From a virus (Duplodnaviria > Heunggongvirae > Uroviricota > Caudoviricetes): DNA of 5,612 nucleotides. Within the stretch, counting starts at the first letter, position 1, and every line of letters begins with the position of its first letter. Positions 1-5,612 of this stretch are shown piece after piece. Below the pieces are notes generated by a model. The model was not told the origin of the DNA. It made no database searches and was given only the letters and a program-made list of their open reading frames with translations. The stretch covers positions 1-5,612 of IMG/VR virus record IMGVR_UViG_2548876695_000002. One strand, given 5' to 3'. A program made the position numbers and the translations under genes.

Positions 1-73
1 TTCCATCAGAAACGATGATCTGGCAGCCTGAGTTCACAGATAAAACACTCTCCAGGAAAACCGGGGCGGTTCA
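1..73 (+). mobile_element. Right terminus (IRR) of an IS3-family insertion sequence, IS629-like; element body lies left of the window
   Basis: Plus strand ends ...CCGGGGCGGTTCA at 73. Its reverse complement TGAACCGCCCCGGTTTTCCTGGAGA matches the terminus at 5541 (TGAACCGCCCCGGAAATCCTGGAGA) at 22 of 25 positions, so the two are the paired terminal inverted repeats of one IS type. TGA...TCA termini are typical of the IS3 family. Confidence 0.6.
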
Positions 74-289
74 ATCAGAGTTTGATTCAGTAACGCGTAT
101 GGCAGCTAATTCAACATTATATAAATTAAGAATGTCGAGGATGTTATTTCTCACATACTTTAATTTTTCTGGTGTGTCTAAGGTCGAAGGTATTTTAATA
201 ACATCAACACATTTGAGTGCAGACTCATTAGTGCAATATACAACAAAAGATGTAACTTTGGGCGCCGCTCTAACACCTAGTATTCTCAT
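71..289 (-). pseudogene. N-terminal fragment (72 codons) of an unknown gene, truncated by the IS insertion; the stop codon TGA is the IS terminal triplet
   Basis: ORF begins with ATG at 289 and runs leftward in AT-rich DNA (about 28% GC in 121-180 by hand count). Its stop (plus-strand tca 71-73) is exactly the last three bases of the IS inverted repeat. No recognisable family from the sequence. The antisense ORF 15-308 is an alternative reading I cannot exclude. Confidence 0.35.
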
Positions 290-340
290 TTTTTATATCC
301 TATTTTAGAATCAGGCCGCATCTCTGCGACCATCCATCAT

Positions 341-355
341 CCAAACGTCTCTTCA
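341..355. repeat. 15-bp direct repeat CCAAACGTCTCTTCA, copy 1 (copy 2 at 712-726)
   Basis: Exact 15-mer present at 341-355 and 712-726. Copy 1 lies 2 nt 3' of the 113-aa ORF stop and copy 2 lies between the cI stop and that ORF's RBS. Confidence 0.8.
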
Positions 356-356
356 C

Positions 357-698
357 TCATCCGAAGAAGCAGCAATCCGGGTCAGCACGCACAAGCTCAA
401 GCGCATCAGTCAGCGAAAGTTCAGTACTGTACTGATGCCATTTCATATCCTTCCGCATCCAATAGATTTTCCATCTATCCAGAGAACGTATGTACTTGAT
501 TCTTGCTGATGGCAGGATGTTTGTTTCACCTGGATTGCCCTGCCACACGGGGCGCTGTTCGCCGATATCTATCGTTTGGTCATTGATGCTATAAACAATA
601 TCCAGTTCATTGCGGATATGTTCAGGCGGCCTTATGCTTTCAATGAATTGGTGAACTTCTTTTTTTACTGCTTGATATTCAAGGTCATTGAACGCCAT
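357..698 (-). CDS. Hypothetical 113-aa protein, accessory gene immediately downstream of cI on the same strand (position of lambda rexA/rexB)
   Basis: Intact ORF on the cI strand with a strong SD (minus strand AAGGAGGATAG-ATG) 4 nt upstream of ATG at 698. No signal peptide or transmembrane segment is evident; C-terminus ...DPDCCFFG. Family not recognised by eye. Confidence 0.6.
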   Translation of the reverse strand: MAFNDLEYQAVKKEVHQFIESIRPPEHIRNELDIVYSINDQTIDIGEQRPVWQGNPGETNILPSARIKYIRSLDRWKIYWMRKDMKWHQYSTELSLTDALELVRADPDCCFFG

Positions 699-711
699 CT
701 ATCCTCCTTAC

Positions 712-726
712 CCAAACGTCTCTTCA
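712..726. repeat. 15-bp direct repeat CCAAACGTCTCTTCA, copy 2
   Basis: Identical to 341-355; the two copies bracket the 113-aa ORF. Confidence 0.8.
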
Positions 727-758
727 GGCCACTGGTTACCAGCTATGTGACGATGAAG

Positions 759-1466
759 TCACGAACTTTTCAGCCACTCCCTTGCCTCGATGTCATCCAG
801 ATGGCGAGATTGCTTCAGAATACCAGCTACATACTCCACCTTTGCTACTTGATGATAAGGCAACGTTATAGGCCTGTGATCCTGGTTAATGCTTGTAAAT
901 TGGTATTCTCCATCTCTGTCATAGCCAAGAACCTTAATCATGTTGTGTCCTTCAACGGTTCTGACAAACACCTCATCACCCGGGAATACTTTGGTGTTAG
1001 GCTCAATGAGTACATATTCTCCTGATTTTATTCTGGGCCACATGCTGTCTCCTTTCACACGAAGACCAAAGGCATCTGGATCATCGCTATAAATTTTGAG
1101 CCACCCATCGCGCTCTTCGGTCATCTCGATGGCACCATCAACACCAAGAATTGCCTCACCAACCACGCGCACTAACCCTTTTTTTAATTTGCCAACAAAT
1201 GAAAGAGTATCTTCATCATTCGCTCCATTTAACGAAGTGCCGTGCTGAAGCCAAACAACATCAACGTTTAGAAATTTCGCAAGCGCATTCATTTTTTCCT
1301 GACGCGGTAAAGACTCAGCATTAAACCATTTGCTAACGCCTTTGGACGAAAGAGAAAGGGCACGGGCTATAGCCATTCCCCTACCATGTTCATCAAGACC
1401 AGCTTCTTTACAGGCTTGCGCTAGCCGCTGGGCGAATTCTTTGCGCACTTTTTCATTCTGAACCAT
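759..1466 (-). CDS. cI: Phage CI-type repressor (N-terminal HTH DNA-binding domain, C-terminal LexA-like S24 peptidase domain)
   Basis: 235-aa ORF. N-terminal HTH region (...GRGMAIARALSLSSKGVSKWFN...). C-terminal domain has GDSMWP (catalytic Ser) and a downstream Lys in ...HNMIKVLGY, the Ser-Lys dyad spacing of LexA/CI/UmuD. Transcribed divergently from cro. Confidence 0.9.
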   Translation of the reverse strand: MVQNEKVRKEFAQRLAQACKEAGLDEHGRGMAIARALSLSSKGVSKWFNAESLPRQEKMNALAKFLNVDVVWLQHGTSLNGANDEDTLSFVGKLKKGLVRVVGEAILGVDGAIEMTEERDGWLKIYSDDPDAFGLRVKGDSMWPRIKSGEYVLIEPNTKVFPGDEVFVRTVEGHNMIKVLGYDRDGEYQFTSINQDHRPITLPYHQVAKVEYVAGILKQSRHLDDIEAREWLKSS

Positions 1467-1544
1467 GAGTACGATACTAAAGCACTTGCAAAAACTTTCA
1501 GTTCAACCATAATACGTACTGAAAGTACGAAAAAGGATATTCCT
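1467..1544. promoter_or_regulatory. Divergent immunity control region (OR operators, PR rightward, PRM leftward)
   Basis: 78-bp intergenic region between divergent cI and cro. Rightward sigma70-like promoter TTGCAA (1486-1491), 16-bp spacer, CATAAT (1508-1513). Inverted repeats with GTAC cores: CGTACTgaaAGTACG (1515-1529), AGTACG at 1468-1473, and ACTTTCAGT (1494-1502) paired with ACTGAAAGT (1518-1526). cro SD AAGGA at 1533-1537. Exact operator boundaries are not determinable by eye. Confidence 0.6.
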
Positions 1545-1772
1545 ATGCAAAATCTTGATGAGCCGATTAAAGGTGTCGGCATCCCTGAAGTTGCGAAGGC
1601 TTGTGGAGTTAGCGAAAGGGCTGTCTATAAGTGGCTCAAAAACGGCTTCCTCCCTAAGACTGAGTTTTTTGGGAAAACTAAATACGCATCAAAAATCGAA
1701 GAGATTTCTGGTGGCAAATATCAAGCAAGCGAAATGCTTGAAATAAGCAAAAAGAACCTTCTGGCTGCATAA
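1545..1772 (+). CDS. cro: Cro-like HTH repressor
   Basis: 75-aa ORF divergent from cI, with HTH segment GIPEVAKACGVSERAVYKWLKNG; the position and size fit a cro gene. Not lambda Cro in sequence. Confidence 0.8.
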   Translation: MQNLDEPIKGVGIPEVAKACGVSERAVYKWLKNGFLPKTEFFGKTKYASKIEEISGGKYQASEMLEISKKNLLAA

Positions 1773-1810
1773 GTAACACCGCTATTTTCACAATGGACAT
1801 TCGTCCTACG

Positions 1811-1871
1811 TCGCTGACAAAGCGAGTCCCAATATATCTGACCAACTAAGGCTACATGCGTTTCCACGCAT
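1811..1871 (+). promoter_or_regulatory. Two short hairpins in the cro-cII spacer, candidate nutR boxB-like / tR1 region
   Basis: TCGCT-gacaa-AGCGA (1811-1825) and ATGCGT-ttcc-ACGCAT (1856-1871). This is the location where lambdoid phages carry nutR and tR1. No clear boxA consensus seen, so the functional assignment is tentative. Confidence 0.25.
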
Positions 1872-1910
1872 ACCTTTCAACTAACTATTCACTATTGGAA
1901 ATCTTAAGAA

Positions 1911-2207
1911 ATGGAACAAACAAGTTACAGCAAACTATCCCAGCGTGACGTTGATCGCGCAGAAACAGATTTACTCATCAACCTGTCAACGCTTACCCAG
2001 CGCGGTCTGGCAAAGATGATTGGCTGTCATGAATCGAAGATAAGCAGAACGGACTGGAGATTTATTGCTTCGGTCTTGTGTGCTTTCGGAATGGCATCAG
2101 ACATCAGTCCGATTAGCAGGGCTTTTAAGTATGCGCTTGATGAAATCACAAAGAAAAAATCCCCGGTGGCCGCCGGGGACTCTAAGCAAATTGATATGCA
2201 ATTCTGA
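1911..2207 (+). CDS. cII: CII transcriptional activator
   Basis: 98-aa ORF whose C-terminus ...KKKSPVAAGDSKQIDMQF parallels lambda CII ...KKRPAATERSEQIQMEF as I recall it; same size and position between cro and O. Confidence 0.85.
   Translation: MEQTSYSKLSQRDVDRAETDLLINLSTLTQRGLAKMIGCHESKISRTDWRFIASVLCAFGMASDISPISRAFKYALDEITKKKSPVAAGDSKQIDMQF
1920..1933 (-). promoter_or_regulatory. Candidate CII-binding tetrad repeat of pRE (TTGC-N6-TTGT on minus strand)
   Basis: Minus strand reads TTGC-TGTAAC-TTGT across cII codons 4-8, analogous to the lambda pRE -35 region TTGC-N6-TTGC which also overlaps the start of cII. Confidence 0.35.
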
Positions 2208-2229
2208 GGGAATTACTGGATCAATCCAC
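2151..2229 (-). ncRNA. oop: OOP-like antisense RNA overlapping the 3' end of cII, ending in an intrinsic terminator
   Basis: Minus strand hairpin CCCCGGCGGCCACCGGGG (plus 2161-2178) followed by ATTTTTTCTT. The upstream minus-strand sequence resembles the lambda oop transcript (shared GATCCAGTAAT core). Start inferred about 7 nt downstream of the pO -10. Confidence 0.5.
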
Positions 2230-2236
2230 AGGAGTC

Positions 2237-2265
2237 ATTATGACAAATACAGCAAAAATACTCAA
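2237..2265 (-). promoter_or_regulatory. pO-like promoter for the OOP RNA
   Basis: Minus strand TTGAGT (plus 2260-2265), 17-bp spacer, CATAAT (plus 2237-2242); it lies inside the first codons of O, as in lambda. Confidence 0.45.
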
Positions 2266-3178
2266 CTTCGGCAGAGGTAACTTTGCCGAACAGGAGCGTA
2301 ATGTGGCAGATCTCGATGATGGTTACGCCAGACTATCAAATATGCTGATTGAGGCTTATTCAGGCGCAGATCTGACCAAGCGACAGTTTAAAGTGCTGCT
2401 TGCCATTCTGCGTAAAACCTATGGGTGGAATAAACCAATGGACAGAATCACCGATTCTCAACTTAGCGAGATTACAAAGTTACCTGTCAAACGGTGCAAT
2501 GAAGCCAAGTTAGAACTCGTCAGAATGAATATTATCAAGCAGCAAGGCGGCATGTTTGGACCAAATAAAAACATCTCAGAATGGTGCATCCCTCAAAACG
2601 AGGGAGGTTCCCCTAAAATGAGGGACATCCCTCAAAACGAGGGAAAATCCCCTAAAACGAGGGATAAAACATCCCTCAAATTAGGGGATTGCTATCCCTC
2701 AAAACAGGGGGACACAAAAGACACTATTACAAAAGAAAAAAGAAAAGATTATTCGTCCGAGAATTCTGGCGAATCCTCTGACCAGCCAGAAAACGATCTT
2801 TCTGTGGTTAAACCGGATGCTGCAATTCAGAGCGGCAGCAAGTGGGGAACAGCAGAAGACCTGACCGCCGCAGAGTGGATGTTTGACATGGTGAAGACTA
2901 TCGCGCCATCAGCCAGAAAACCGAATTTTGCTGGGTGGGCTAACGATATCCGCCTGATGCGTGAACGTGACGGACGTAACCACCGCGATATGTGTGTGCT
3001 TTTCCGCTGGGCCTGCCAGGACAACTTCTGGTCCGGTAACGTGCTGAGTCCGGCCAAACTCCGCGACAAGTGGACCCAGCTCGAAATCAACCGTAACAAG
3101 CAACAGGCAGGCGTGACAGCCAGCAAACCAAAACTCGACCTGACAAACACTGACTGGATTTACGGGGTGGATTTATGA
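2240..3178 (+). CDS. O: Replication initiator protein O (origin-binding), lambda-like, with a 13-aa insertion encoded by two extra iterons
   Basis: 312-aa ORF with N-terminus MTNTAKILNFGRGNFAEQERNVADLDDGYARLSNML... and C-terminus ...TNTDWIYGVDL matching lambda O as I recall it (lambda O is 299 aa). SD AGGAG at 2230-2234. The extra 13 residues (roughly GSPKMRDIPQNEG) fall in the iteron-encoded linker. Confidence 0.95.
   Translation: MTNTAKILNFGRGNFAEQERNVADLDDGYARLSNMLIEAYSGADLTKRQFKVLLAILRKTYGWNKPMDRITDSQLSEITKLPVKRCNEAKLELVRMNIIKQQGGMFGPNKNISEWCIPQNEGGSPKMRDIPQNEGKSPKTRDKTSLKLGDCYPSKQGDTKDTITKEKRKDYSSENSGESSDQPENDLSVVKPDAAIQSGSKWGTAEDLTAAEWMFDMVKTIAPSARKPNFAGWANDIRLMRERDGRNHRDMCVLFRWACQDNFWSGNVLSPAKLRDKWTQLEINRNKQQAGVTASKPKLDLTNTDWIYGVDL
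2589..2712 (+). repeat. Origin of replication iterons (six O-binding repeats) inside the O gene, followed by an AT-rich unwinding region (2713-2760)
   Basis: Six ~17-18 bp inverted-repeat iterons: TCCCTCAAAACGAGGGA (2589-2605), TCCCCTAAAATGAGGGA (2609-2625), TCCCTCAAAACGAGGGA (2628-2644), TCCCCTAAAACGAGGGA (2648-2664), TCCCTCAAATTAGGGGA (2672-2688), TCCCTCAAAACAGGGGGA (2695-2712). Followed by ACAAAAGACACTATTACAAAAGAAAAAAGAAAAGATTATT. Confidence 0.9.
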
Positions 3179-3876
3179 AAAACATCGCCGCACAGATGGT
3201 TAACTTTGACCGTGAGCAGATGCGTCGAATCGCCAACAACATGCCGGAACAGTACGACGAAAAGCCGCAGGTACAACAGGTAGCGCAGATCATCAACGGT
3301 GTGTTCAGCCAGTTACTGGCAACTTTCCCGGCGAGTCTGGCTAACCGGGACCAGAACGAACTGAATGAAATCCGCCGCCAGTGGGTTCTGGCTTTCCGGG
3401 AAAACGGGATCACCACAATGGAACAGGTTAACGCAGGAATGCGCGTAGCCCGTCGGCAGAATCGACCATTTCTGCCATCACCCGGGCAGTTTGTTGCATG
3501 GTGCCGGGAAGAAGCATCCGTTATCGCCGGACTGCCAAACGTCAGCGAGCTGGTTGATATGGTTTACGAGTATTGCCGGAAGCGAGGCCTGTATCCGGAT
3601 GCGGAGTCTTATCCGTGGAAATCAAACGCGCACTACTGGCTGGTTACCAACCTGTATCAGAACATGCGGGCCAATGCGCTTACTGATGCGGAATTACGCC
3701 GTAAGGCCGCAGATGAGCTTGTCCATATGACTGCGAGAATTAACCGTGGTGAGGCGATCCCTGAACCAGTAAAACAACTTCCTGTCATGGGCGGCAGACC
3801 TCTAAATCGTGCACAGGCTCTGGCGAAGATCGCAGAAATTAAAGCTAAGTTCGGACTGAAAGGAGCAAGAGTATGA
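3175..3876 (+). CDS. P: Replication protein P (DnaB helicase loader), lambda-like
   Basis: 233-aa ORF MKNIAAQMVNFDREQMRRIANNMPEQYDEKPQ... matching lambda P in length and sequence as recalled. ATGA overlap with the O stop at 3175-3178. Confidence 0.95.
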   Translation: MKNIAAQMVNFDREQMRRIANNMPEQYDEKPQVQQVAQIINGVFSQLLATFPASLANRDQNELNEIRRQWVLAFRENGITTMEQVNAGMRVARRQNRPFLPSPGQFVAWCREEASVIAGLPNVSELVDMVYEYCRKRGLYPDAESYPWKSNAHYWLVTNLYQNMRANALTDAELRRKAADELVHMTARINRGEAIPEPVKQLPVMGGRPLNRAQALAKIAEIKAKFGLKGARV

Positions 3877-4163
3877 CGGGCAAAGAGGCAATTATTCATT
3901 ACCTCGGGACGCATAAGAACTTCTGTGCACAGGACGTTTCCGCGGTAACAGGCGCAACCGTAACCAGCATAAATCAGGCTGCGGCTAAAATGGCGCGGGC
4001 AGGAATCCTGATCATTGATGGTAAGGTCTGGCGAACGGTGTATTACCGGTTTGCTACCAGGGAAGAACGGGAAGGAACGGTGAGCACGAACCTGATTTTT
4101 AAGGAGTGTCGCCAGAGTGCAGCGATGAAACGGGTATTGGCGGTATATGGAGTTAAAAGATGA
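3873..4163 (+). CDS. ren: Ren protein (Rex exclusion resistance), lambda-like
   Basis: 96-aa ORF MTGKEAIIHYLGTH...KRVLAVYGVKR, same length and closely similar to lambda Ren as recalled. ATGA overlap with the P stop. Confidence 0.9.
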   Translation: MTGKEAIIHYLGTHKNFCAQDVSAVTGATVTSINQAAAKMARAGILIIDGKVWRTVYYRFATREEREGTVSTNLIFKECRQSAAMKRVLAVYGVKR

Positions 4164-4188
4164 CCATCTACATCACTGAGCTAATGAC

Positions 4189-4220
4189 AGGCCTGCTGGT
4201 AATCGCAGGCCTTTTTATTT
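4189..4220 (+). terminator. Intrinsic terminator, tR2-like
   Basis: 8-bp stem AGGCCTGC (4189-4196) / GCAGGCCT (4205-4212) with loop TGGTAATC, followed by TTTTATTT (4213-4220). Confidence 0.7.
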
Positions 4221-4233
4221 GGGGGAGAGGGAA

Positions 4234-4512
4234 GTGAACGATAGCTACCGACAGTTTGAAAACTGGTGGTCAAAAGACAAAAGCCAGTTCACGGGAGACG
4301 ATGAATTAAAAGAGTTTGCCTGGGTGATATGGCAGGCATCGCGCTCTGCTATTGAACTGGATATCGACTGGCCCGAATCGAATGACGACCTTTGGAAAGA
4401 TGGTGAAGAAGGTGCTTATGCGATGGGTTATGAGGATGGGCGTGACAAAACGGTAATTGCAGTAATGAAAGCCATCAGGGCCGCAGGAATCAAAGAAAAG
4501 AATTTCGATTAA
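4234..4512 (+). CDS. Hypothetical small acidic protein (about 93 aa); start codon uncertain (GTG 4234 preferred over TTG 4219)
   Basis: ORF ...NDSYRQFENWWSKDKSQFTGDDELKEFAWVIWQ...IRAAGIKEKNFD. GGAG at 4224-4227 lies 6 nt before GTG 4234. The TTG at 4219 offered by the ORF track sits inside the terminator T-run and is unlikely. Inserted relative to lambda, where ninB follows tR2 directly. Confidence 0.5.
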   Translation: MNDSYRQFENWWSKDKSQFTGDDELKEFAWVIWQASRSAIELDIDWPESNDDLWKDGEEGAYAMGYEDGRDKTVIAVMKAIRAAGIKEKNFD

Positions 4513-4644
4513 GCAAATATCACTTCAATAAATCGCTTTTAAGGCATCACAATCGCTCTGTGGTGAGGTAAGCACGTGCAAGGCATGCCGATAAGCAGCG
4601 AGAATGAAAAATGCGTCAGAATGCGTTTGAGGAGGTTTTAAGAA

Positions 4645-4860
4645 ATGAGTACGATAGCTGAGCTTGTCAGGGCTAATTTTCGTGAAGAGTTGGTGCGTTG
4701 GTATCGGTATCGTTCATCGTCCAGTTTGCCGCTTGATGAGTTGTATGAGCATTCACCTGCCGCACGACGCTATCCGCGTGACCGTGTTCTTCGACGGTTG
4801 TTCAAACTCAACAATGAGTTTCAGCGCAACAGAATTATCCGGAGTCTGGATTTTAAGTGA
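4645..4860 (+). CDS. Hypothetical 71-aa basic protein
   Basis: Strong SD GAGGAGG (4630-4636) 8 nt upstream of ATG 4645. Arg-rich sequence; family not recognised. Confidence 0.6.
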   Translation: MSTIAELVRANFREELVRWYRYRSSSSLPLDELYEHSPAARRYPRDRVLRRLFKLNNEFQRNRIIRSLDFK

Positions 4861-4870
4861 AGGAGTGAGC

Positions 4871-5041
4871 ATGAGCGACCTATCATTAACCCAGCCAAAG
4901 CTAAAAGAATGTCCGTTTTGCGGCGGTAATGCTCGTCTGTGGGTTGAGGCCGGAATAAATATTGATGTGTGGGGCTATGCAGAATGTGACCTCTGTGAAG
5001 CCAGGGGGGGCATGGGCACCATCAGTTGCTGCGGCGGCTGA
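4871..5041 (+). CDS. Lar-family-like zinc-ribbon protein (restriction alleviation), apparently frameshifted at a G7 tract
   Basis: SD AAGGAG (4860-4865) 5 nt before ATG 4871. CPFCGG-x20-CDLC four-cysteine zinc-ribbon pattern. The frame ends ...GGMGTISCCGG* at 5041, but the other forward frame (codons on 5010, 5013, ...) continues AWAPSVAAAAEKWNRRAGDEANLSASQRSNQK* to 5108 and carries the A-x-x-WNRR motif I associate with Lar-family C-termini. One fewer G in the run 5004-5010 would fuse the two. Confidence 0.5.
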   Translation: MSDLSLTQPKLKECPFCGGNARLWVEAGINIDVWGYAECDLCEARGGMGTISCCGG

Positions 5042-5064
5042 AAAATGGAACCGGAGAGCAGGAG

Positions 5065-5511
5065 ATGAAGCAAACCTTTCTGCTTCGCAACGAAGCAATC
5101 AGAAATAACGCCATAGACGCCATTCTCTCACTACCCATCGACGACAAGTCACCCCACGAAGTCCACGTTAAAGAACCCAAGCGCAGCAAAGCGCAGAATG
5201 ACCGCATGTGGCCGATGCTGAACGATGTTTCGCGTCAGGTGCTATGGCATGGTCAACGGCTGGCGCCGGAAGACTGGAAAGACCTGTTCACTGCCCTGTG
5301 GCTTAAGACCAAAAAACTGGAGCAACGAAGTGTGCCTGGTATCGACGGTGGCGTTGTCATGCTTGGCGTGCGTACCAGCAAAATGCGGAAGGCCAGCATG
5401 ACTGAGCTTATCGAAATCATGTTCTGGTTCGGCTCAGAGCGCAACGTGCGGTGGAGTGATGACTCCTGGCGAGAGTATGAATGGTCACAACGAAAAGGGA
5501 GAGCTGCATGA
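5065..5511 (+). CDS. ninB: NinB (Orf-family recombination protein)
   Basis: 148 aa starting MKQTFLLRNEA... (lambda NinB MKKLTFEIRSP...), with conserved ...DQNRKLW / NDRMWP..., GDVSRQV / NDVSRQV and C-terminal ...EWKARWGDRAA versus ...EWSQRKGRAA. The upstream ATG at 5026 in the ORF track lacks support. GGAG at 5053-5056. Confidence 0.9.
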   Translation: MKQTFLLRNEAIRNNAIDAILSLPIDDKSPHEVHVKEPKRSKAQNDRMWPMLNDVSRQVLWHGQRLAPEDWKDLFTALWLKTKKLEQRSVPGIDGGVVMLGVRTSKMRKASMTELIEIMFWFGSERNVRWSDDSWREYEWSQRKGRAA

Positions 5512-5543
5512 CTATCAAATCAAATACGCCATCACACGACTGA
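5508..5543 (+). pseudogene. First 11 codons of the gene translationally coupled to ninB (ATGA overlap), truncated by the IS insertion
   Basis: ATG 5508 overlaps the ninB stop TGA 5509-5511, the arrangement at the lambda ninB/ninC junction. The reading frame MTIKSNTPSHD terminates at TGA 5541-5543, which is the first triplet of the IS inverted repeat. Confidence 0.4.
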
Positions 5544-5612
5544 ACCGCCCCGGAAATCCTGGAGACTAAACTCCCTGAGAAAGAGGTAAACAGGATGACT
5601 AAAAATACTCGT
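5541..5612 (+). mobile_element. Left terminus (IRL) and 5' end of an IS3-family insertion sequence, IS629-like; element continues beyond the window
   Basis: TGAACCGCCCCGGAAATCCTGGAGACTAAACTCCCTGAGAAAGAGGTAAACAGG-ATG-ACTAAAAATACTCGT matches the IS629 left end and OrfA start MTKNTR as I recall them. Inverted-repeat match to the sequence at 49-73. Confidence 0.75.
5596..5612 (+). CDS. IS3-family transposase OrfA, 5' partial (first 5 codons in window)
   Basis: ATG at 5596 preceded by AAAGAGG. MTKNTR is the remembered N-terminus of IS629/IS1203 OrfA. Only 17 nt fall in the window. Confidence 0.6.

Follow-up and report, generated by a model that had tools for sequence, protein, structure and literature searches.

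A probable variable slot for accessory genes at the start of the nin region in a Shiga toxin phage-type lambdoid prophage, carrying a frameshifted Lar-family gene

The stretch of DNA analysed here, positions 1 to 5,612 of IMG/VR record IMGVR_UViG_2548876695_000002 (5,612 nucleotides in full, hereafter the window), is a lambdoid early-right region by its open reading frame (ORF) map and family scans, and the subject of this work is the segment between the terminator tR2 and the gene ninB. In a BLAST comparison with phage lambda, the window is 96.7% identical from O through P and ren to tR2, and this homology stops exactly at position 4235, 1 nt before the ATG of lambda ninB. In lambda, ninB comes directly after ren and tR2, whereas in the window an 831-bp segment (4234-5064) that is missing from lambda precedes ninB and carries three small ORFs, encoding an acidic protein (gene 1), an arginine-rich basic protein (gene 2) and a Lar-like zinc ribbon (Table 1). 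Each ORF is preceded by a Shine-Dalgarno (SD) sequence graded strong, namely GGGGGAGAGGGAA before the GTG of gene 1, GAGGAGG 9 nt before the ATG of gene 2 at 4645, and AAGGAG 5 nt before the ATG of the Lar-like ORF at 4871. The original prediction, made from the sequence of the window, had described these three SD-preceded ORFs and the direct succession of ren/tR2 and ninB in lambda, and both descriptions hold, as does that of an Arg-rich second protein of 71 aa. Its ORFs lie where it had placed them, but its left limit, 4221, falls within an SD sequence, and gene 1 starts at the GTG at 4234 and encodes 92 rather than about 93 amino acids. Additionally, it had missed the truncation of the Lar-like ORF and a fourth, tiny ORF, ninA.

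The ninA-like ORF spans tR2, with its ATG overlapping the ren stop codon (ATGA) and its stop codon overlapping the gene 1 start (GTGA), and is named NinA or H0046 in the records of SE1, PhiR12_4 and VT1-Sakai. The segment of about 75 bp that comprises ninA and tR2 (4160-4235) is common, at 90-99% identity, to lambda, phage 21 and P22-like phages, whatever genes flank it, and HK022 has only part (41 nt) of it. Within this segment, the window differs from lambda only at 4174 and 4186, upstream of the tR2 stem, and the stem-loop and T-run are identical to those of lambda. As the lambda homology continues through the SD sequence to 4235, gene 1 uses the very SD that serves ninB in lambda. These comparisons argue that the ninA/tR2 segment is the conserved left-hand linker of a gene slot, of which the start of ninB would form the right-hand bound.

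The content of this slot varies among relatives gene by gene. In PhiR12_4 and F451, homology to the window stops at 4229-4232 and resumes at 4631, leaving out gene 1 and the spacer that follows it, with the joint falling within two purine-rich SD sequences. In TL-2011a, an unrelated 68-aa gene (phrog_1165) replaces gene 1 and homology is back at 4506, and both F723 and TL-2011a diverge 8 nt past the Lar ATG (4878), where a 60-aa phrog_9493 gene replaces Lar and is accompanied by a different ninB arrangement. The joint in WGPS4 lies within gene 1, at 4328, and the P22-like phage SE1 combines a gene of the gene 1 family (phrog_343, orf-86) with the unrelated orf-98. On the right-hand side, NinB of the window is 44% identical in amino acid sequence to lambda NinB and thus represents a divergent allele, so that there is no clean right-hand insertion junction. 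Taken together, these comparisons indicate that each of the three genes varies independently of the other two among relatives, the joints falling at SD sequences or start codons, and the cassette-wise variation, the gene-boundary joints and the divergent ninB argue against one inserted island, as which the original prediction had interpreted the segment. The comparison of the ren-ninB junction across lambdoid phages that it had suggested as a check bears it out as to the extra genes relative to lambda, but reveals a cassette-wise mosaic rather than one unit; and of the references in which it expected the genes to be missing, lambda does lack them, whereas 933W, VT1-Sakai and many others have them at this junction.

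The segment has the layout of a lambdoid nin-region gene set between the replication genes and Q: it lies past ren/tR2, is joined by ATGA and GTGA overlaps and, in alleles with an intact Lar gene, overlaps ninB by 44 nt; NinE/F/G/H and Q come next in relatives. The families to which genes 1 and 2 belong, PF26207 and DUF7301, keep their place between the replication module and ninB, or the gene in the ninB slot, in prophages of Hafnia, Salmonella and E. coli, and this position is held across unrelated replication genes (O/P, DnaB-type, Toprim primase-helicase and IstB/DnaA-like). As a separate observation, in the Shiga toxin (Stx) 2a phages F723 (L007, 2588-3446) and TL-2011a (L010, 2317-3328), the place of ninB is taken by a NinB-family ORF that is shortened or alternative (87 or 138 aa), followed by an ORF of about 200 aa, annotated as an endonuclease in F723 and as a hypothetical protein in TL-2011a, and then by dam.

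Table 1. Features of the slot between tR2 and ninB, followed by those of the flanking early-right region, in coordinates of the window.
Feature	Position	Strand	Family or remark
Region of the original prediction	4221-5064		
ninA-like ORF, 25 aa, hydrophobic, MTIYITELMTGLLVIAGLFIWGRGK	4160-4237	+	phrog_5907, E 1.3e-17
tR2 intrinsic terminator, 8-bp GC-rich stem, loop and T-run	4189-4219 (hairpin 4189-4212)	+	sole terminator-like site in 4000-5300
Purine-rich SD, GGGGGAGAGGGAA	4221-4233	+	serves ninB in lambda, gene 1 here
Gene 1, 92 aa, acidic, isoelectric point (pI) 4.40, 21 D+E	4234 (GTG)-4512	+	PF26207 (Phage_phiTE_015)/phrog_343
Non-coding spacer between genes 1 and 2, 132 bp	4513-4644	+	
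Gene 2, 71 aa, basic, 14 Arg, pI 10.80	4645-4860	+	DUF7301 (PF23975)/phrog_1785
Lar-like zinc-ribbon ORF, 56 aa, ending GMGTISCCGG + stop	4871-5041	+	PF14354/TIGR03655, below cut-offs
G7 homopolymer, one G above the G6 of intact alleles	5004-5010	+	alignment with relatives
Out-of-frame Lar remainder, AWAPSVAAAAEKWNRRAGDEANLSASQRSNQK*	5011-5108	+	last 44 nt overlap ninB
ninB (Orf-family recombination mediator), right-hand slot anchor	5065-5511	+	PF05772, 165 bits
cI-type repressor	759-1466	-	
cro	1545-1772		
cII	1911-2207		
O	2240-3178		
P	3175-3876		
ren	3873-4163		phrog_142

The third gene of the slot proves to be a Lar-family gene, as the original prediction had proposed, but the copy in the window is frameshifted by one additional G and scores below both curated cut-offs. 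Specifically, alignment with relatives reveals a run of seven G residues (G7) in the window and in 933W and of six (G6) in VT1-Sakai, AU5Stx1 and BP-4795. The additional G moves the frame after residue 46, just past C39 and C42, and yields a product of 56 aa compared with 78 aa in G6 alleles. The four cysteines of a C4 zinc ribbon, carried by CPFCG and a second CxxC (C14, C17, C39 and C42), all precede the shift and align with the cysteines of RalR, the Lar protein of the Rac prophage. The C-terminal E-x-W-N-(R/K)-R motif, in contrast, is absent from the in-frame product of the window and is encoded in the +1 frame, where the peptide fits the C-terminal part of the Lar models (positions 31-58 of PF14354 and 34-55 of TIGR03655). 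The window product reaches 25.9 bits against PF14354 (cut-off 28.6) and 39.3 bits against TIGR03655 (cut-off 39.6), while the 78-aa G6 allele, the ORF of which runs 44 nt into ninB, passes both, with 41.3 and 62.3 bits, respectively. In the RefSeq annotation pipeline PGAP, the identical G7 allele is already labelled 'frameshifted'. We therefore read the locus, on the alignments and family models, as a Lar-family gene of which the window copy is a frameshifted derivative, and this copy is most likely a pseudogene or inactive because the conserved C-terminal WNRR segment is lost.

The G7 allele is the rarer one. Among 491 records with the segment from complete E. coli genomes, exact G7 occurs in 22 and exact G6 in 324, and among 119 phage records with the segment, exact G7 occurs in six (four of 933W and two of Min27) and exact G6 in 94; of 5,426 complete E. 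coli genomes, 486 (about 9%) contain a 66-nt stretch of the Lar gene. G7 is not a sequencing error, because 933W and its host EDL933 show it in several independent records and the exact 56-aa product is found on 812 contigs. Within the three-gene module, position 4584 and the G-run are the only differences between the window and VT1-Sakai (G6), whereas 933W (G7) has a seven-site haplotype in common with BP-4795 (G6), which places G7 on two haplotypes. This distribution fits recurrent slippage and is suggestive of it rather than proof. Independent origins of G7 were considered and are not established, since no difference separates the window from 933W across 4769-5204 and a single crossover explains the distribution equally well.

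Gene 1, which corresponds to L0091 of 933W and H0045 of VT1-Sakai, matches phrog_343 with E = 1.2e-29, and its membership in PF26207 follows from a precomputed tag carried by P0001, a protein 100% identical to gene 1, and by 76 of the 81 listed matches. Homologues, the most distant at 51-60% identity, occur in Salmonella, Shigella, Hafnia and Obesumbacterium, the pairwise ratio of nonsynonymous to synonymous substitution rates (dN/dS) is 0.28-0.64, and the exact protein is found on at least 1,000 contigs. The AlphaFold model (predicted local distance difference test score, pLDDT, 71) consists of two helices at the N-terminus, an acidic middle part modelled with low confidence, and one C-terminal helix. 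Foldseek found nothing better than E = 2 for it in the PDB, and a PDB profile search returned noise only, the best hit being SETD8 at E 0.36. Judged by its charge, the acidic protein might conceivably bind another protein, which is a weak guess. Some gene 1 homologues end in '...EANIHASQRSNQK', a tail identical to that of intact Lar, and in one prophage with such a homologue the PF26207 gene overlaps ninB by 44 nt, as intact Lar does. The shared tail and the identical overlap show that different upstream genes have been spliced to ninB at one point and borrow an out-of-frame stop codon inside ninB.

In the spacer between genes 1 and 2, 7 of the approximately 12 module polymorphisms among near-identical Stx phages cluster within 32 nt (4562-4593), including a 1-nt indel. 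Neither the spacer nor the surroundings of Lar give a signal of a structured RNA or small RNA (sRNA), with no Rfam match and fold z-scores of about 0 on both strands. An 18-codon mini-ORF read from the sequence at 4585-4641 was considered and rejected, its ATG being changed in AU5Stx1 (4587) and its frame shifted in 933W by a deletion at 4593.

Gene 2, the counterpart of Orf6 of 933W and H0044 of VT1-Sakai, is named 'DUF7301 family protein' by RefSeq/PGAP and belongs to that family with 91.4 bits against a cut-off of 27, covering model positions 1-64 of 65; it also matches phrog_1785 (E 2e-33). The motif YPRDRVLRRL is invariant between gene 2 and its homologues, which reach down to about 56% identity in Escherichia, the pairwise dN/dS is 0.20-0.35, and the exact protein occurs on at least 1,000 contigs. 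Its AlphaFold model is all-helical (pLDDT 76), and the best Foldseek matches in the PDB and BFVD have E = 2 or worse. A scan of 1.84 billion protein representatives with the DUF7301 hidden Markov model (HMM) found only 47, all small, and ten of ten longer or more distant members that were scanned contain DUF7301 only. A literature search on 'DUF7301' found no papers. From its charge, the Arg-rich protein may be guessed, weakly, to bind nucleic acid. A Cro-like fold was considered for DUF7301 on account of a hit to P22 Cro (1rzs, E 2.8e-7) and was rejected, since the hit is due wholly to one chimeric alignment row, P0112, and is gone once that row is removed. P0112 itself, a 68-aa protein from a Logan contig, joins a P22 Cro-like N-terminus to a DUF7301 C-terminus at YPRDRVLRRL, and its precomputed hits include the Pfam families P22_Cro and YdaS_antitoxin; it is either a real recombinant or an assembly chimera.

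Thus, the two proteins for which the original prediction saw no assignable family do have one each, PF26207/phrog_343 and DUF7301/phrog_1785, both of them function-unknown families. Because homologues down to 51-60% identity occur in other genera and dN/dS is 0.20-0.64, genes 1 and 2 are genuine genes under purifying selection, so the conservation and coding signal that the original prediction had wanted to see is there.

Based on the gene content and the joints, we propose that the segment is, with high probability, a variable slot for accessory genes with which the nin region of an Stx-phage-type lambdoid prophage begins, expressed as part of the delayed-early pR operon and holding a Lar copy that is likely a pseudogene. 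The slot would be bounded by the conserved tR2/ninA linker on the left and the ninB start on the right and would here contain three independently exchangeable genes, encoding an acidic protein of PF26207, a basic helical one of DUF7301 and a zinc-ribbon protein of the Lar family. In consensus scans for promoters and terminators, the scope of which was 4000-5300, no promoter-like site was found on the + strand and no terminator-like site other than tR2. Because the genes lie downstream of tR2 and have no promoter of their own, they would be transcribed within the pR delayed-early operon once N permits RNA polymerase to pass tR2, and, by the same reasoning from position and lambda biology, they should be silent in a repressed lysogen. 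Translation would proceed from the genes' own strong SD sequences in a tight, partly overlapping array, in which ren, ninA and gene 1 are linked through ATGA and GTGA, the gene 2 stop codon lies inside the Lar SD and intact Lar extends 44 nt into ninB. Such tight packing with ATGA overlaps has been described for the nin region (PMC8022706). By homology to Rac Lar/RalR, intact Lar alleles may act upon the type I restriction-modification of the host soon after infection or induction, and the G6-to-G7 slip would shift the frame just after the zinc-binding cysteines at the cost of the conserved WNRR segment. An anti-defence role is suggested in this slot solely for intact Lar alleles.

Three points weigh against this explanation. 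The truncated Lar, which keeps its four cysteines and is as widespread as its 812 contigs indicate, may have a residual or altered function. Rac Lar is only 36% identical, and the mechanism of this founding member is itself disputed (PMC4041452). Finally, the dependence on pR and N is deduced from position and lambda biology and is to be taken as probable by analogy.

In the rival explanation drawn from the original prediction, a single three-gene 'cargo island', moron-like, would have been inserted, with all products engaged in anti-restriction or host takeover, and several observations do fit it: lambda is without the 831 bp, one member is of the Lar family (the PHROGs class of Lar-like proteins being 'moron, auxiliary metabolic gene and host takeover'), and the order PF26207, DUF7301, (Lar), ninB recurs. 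A moron, following Hendrix and colleagues, is said to have its own promoter and terminator and often an atypical composition. The absence of a + strand promoter-like site and of any terminator-like site besides tR2, together with an ordinary GC content (47.8% in the three-gene module versus 47.2% in the prophage segment, with individual genes at 45.9-50.4%), means that the segment does not have the usual marks of an autonomous moron. Moreover, the genes are found separately in relatives, with joints at every gene boundary and one inside gene 1, and the neighbouring ninB is itself another allele. An anti-defence theme fares no better, as the Lar gene that carried it is frameshifted in the window and no result connects genes 1 and 2 with anti-defence: neither has a PADLOC or NCBIfam match, and neither has a link by fold or PDB search to defence or anti-defence families. 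We consider a single island unlikely. A related possibility, that the G6/G7 tract is an on/off or attenuation switch operated by slippage for an anti-restriction or DNase function in prophages of Shiga toxin-producing strains and/or that the PF26207 and DUF7301 proteins, with their conserved position, modulate the host early or counter its defences, is likewise improbable.

Should the G7 allele still be functional, either the 56-aa zinc ribbon would suffice or +1 ribosomal or transcriptional slippage would restore the frame, with the G-tract serving as a switch or attenuator. The position of the four zinc-ligand cysteines ahead of the shift, the intact +1 frame downstream, and the presence of the exact truncated protein on so many contigs and of G7 on two haplotypes, in two prophage types, speak for such a function, and on the sequence A-GGG-GGG-G the Gly tRNA, by moving +1 from one GGG to the overlapping one, would restore precisely the reading frame of G6. 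The majority of records nevertheless have G6, G7 counts as a frameshift in PGAP, no feature that would stimulate frameshifting is evident, the tract is short for a contingency tract, and recombination within the part identical to 933W could have carried one G7 allele between haplotypes, which together make a functional G7 allele very unlikely in our estimation. Highly improbable, too, is that the Lar-like gene encodes a RalR-type DNase toxin of a type I toxin-antitoxin system, with the frameshift selected in lysogens to relieve toxicity. According to PMC4041452, RalR is a DNase toxin; the intact allele shares 36% identity with it and weakly matches the RalR equivalog model NF007260, and the frameshift may have arisen more than once. 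The score of the intact allele, 27.6 bits (18.3 for the window product), is, however, far under the equivalog cut-off of 113 bits, and G6 is kept by most carriers. A search of Rfam gave no match at E <= 1 on either strand of 4000-5300, which a divergent trans-encoded sRNA of the RalA type could escape. The lone minus-strand promoter-like site (4861-4834), examined as a candidate antisense promoter and rejected, is a single consensus match compared with 1.5 expected by chance, and does not lie antisense to Lar. Weighing these alternatives, we retain the variable accessory-gene slot with a probably inactive Lar copy as the preferred explanation.

The prophage that carries the window is found, 100% identical over the whole window, in the genomes of the strains of E. 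coli that produce Shiga toxin (STEC) SJ7, 99E2750, 2011C-4251 and UTAK-4. In 2011C-4251, two copies of an insertion sequence (IS) of the IS3 family flank the block from cI to ninB in the same orientation, the right-hand copy lying between ninB and dam. The first 73 and the last 72 bases of the window (1-73 and 5541-5612) are IS3-family (IS629-like) ends, with termini ...CCGGGGCGGTTCA at 61-73 and TGAACCGCCCCGG... from 5541, and a transposase orfA starts (MTKNTR) at 5596. Separately, the part of the window within P and ren at 3415-4080 carries about 50 private substitutions relative to 933W, VT1-Sakai, AU5Stx1 and BP-4795, which agree with one another; this part also lies within the 96.7% lambda match and resembles a mosaic patch of its own within the replication genes.

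The locus is already known, as an ordinary, annotated mosaic slot of the nin region of Stx phages, and its only functionally suggestive member is a likely pseudogene. Sequences and annotations of Stx phages have included it for many years, and the present findings matter little beyond housekeeping. Inventories of anti-defence genes should not count the Lar copy of the window or of 933W as intact. Some older annotations merge frames and thereby hide the DUF7301 gene: L0092 of 933W (119 aa; L001, 2082-2441) and ORF30 of BP-4795 (141 aa; L004, 2082-2507) start inside the DUF7301 gene in another frame and run into Lar, and RefSeq labels the merged 933W ORF 'Lar-like restriction alleviation protein'. 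Compared with these database entries, the reading of the genes in the original prediction is the better one. The genes for PF26207 and DUF7301 proteins, which are small, fixed in position within the early operon and found in many prophages of pathogenic E. coli, are cheap candidates for functional screens, with no role predicted. As regards the literature, lar is listed among the accessory genes of Stx phages (PMC3430580), and papers on restriction alleviation in O157 concern the Rac-like lar of prophage Sp10 (ECs1932), not this locus.

Positions 4100-5200 of the window match 401 phage records, 106 of which cover at least 80% of this interval, and nucleotide identity over it is 99.6% for VT1-Sakai, 99.5% for AU5Stx1, 99.3% for 933W and also about 99% for BP-4795. 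933W (L0091/Orf6/L0092) and VT1-Sakai (H0045/H0044/H0043) have the same three genes in the same order from ren/tR2 to ninB. 933W shares the G7 frameshift with the window yet differs from it at seven sites in the module, whereas VT1-Sakai has the nearest module haplotype, differing by one single-nucleotide polymorphism and by G6 instead of G7. Distinct from both, the prophage of the window is flanked on both sides by IS3-family elements, one of which separates ninB from dam.

Rac Lar/RalR of K-12 (b1348) resembles the slot Lar as a small C4 zinc ribbon with CPFCG, a second CxxC and a C-terminal E(K/R)WN(R/K)R; the intact allele is 36% identical to it over 58 aa and falls into the same Pfam and TIGR families. 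The slot Lar is nevertheless not its equivalog, the window copy does not have the C-terminal motif, and Rac lar adjoins recT, far from the nin region in which the slot Lar sits. Unlike the RalR/RalA pair of Rac, the slot has no Rfam family nearby and hence no RalA-type RNA, provided that Rfam models one. Restriction alleviation has been shown for Rac Lar only (King & Murray 1995, cited in PMC4041452), and the same protein has been reported as a non-specific DNase toxin (PMC4041452).

Where lambda passes from ninA/tR2 straight to ninB and the P22-like phage SE1 has its PF26207-family orf-86 and the unrelated orf-98, the window has its three genes. Lambda also encodes Ral, which is unrelated in sequence to Lar and lies in the pL operon, not in the nin region. 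Functionally, Ral is an analogue of Lar in that it alleviates type I restriction (PMC4041452, citing King & Murray 1995 and Toothman 1981). With the nin regions of lambda and P22, the slot has in common the tR2/ninA linker, the SD sequence, the operon position, the overlapping packing of stop and start codons, and the mosaicism at gene boundaries (PMC8022706).

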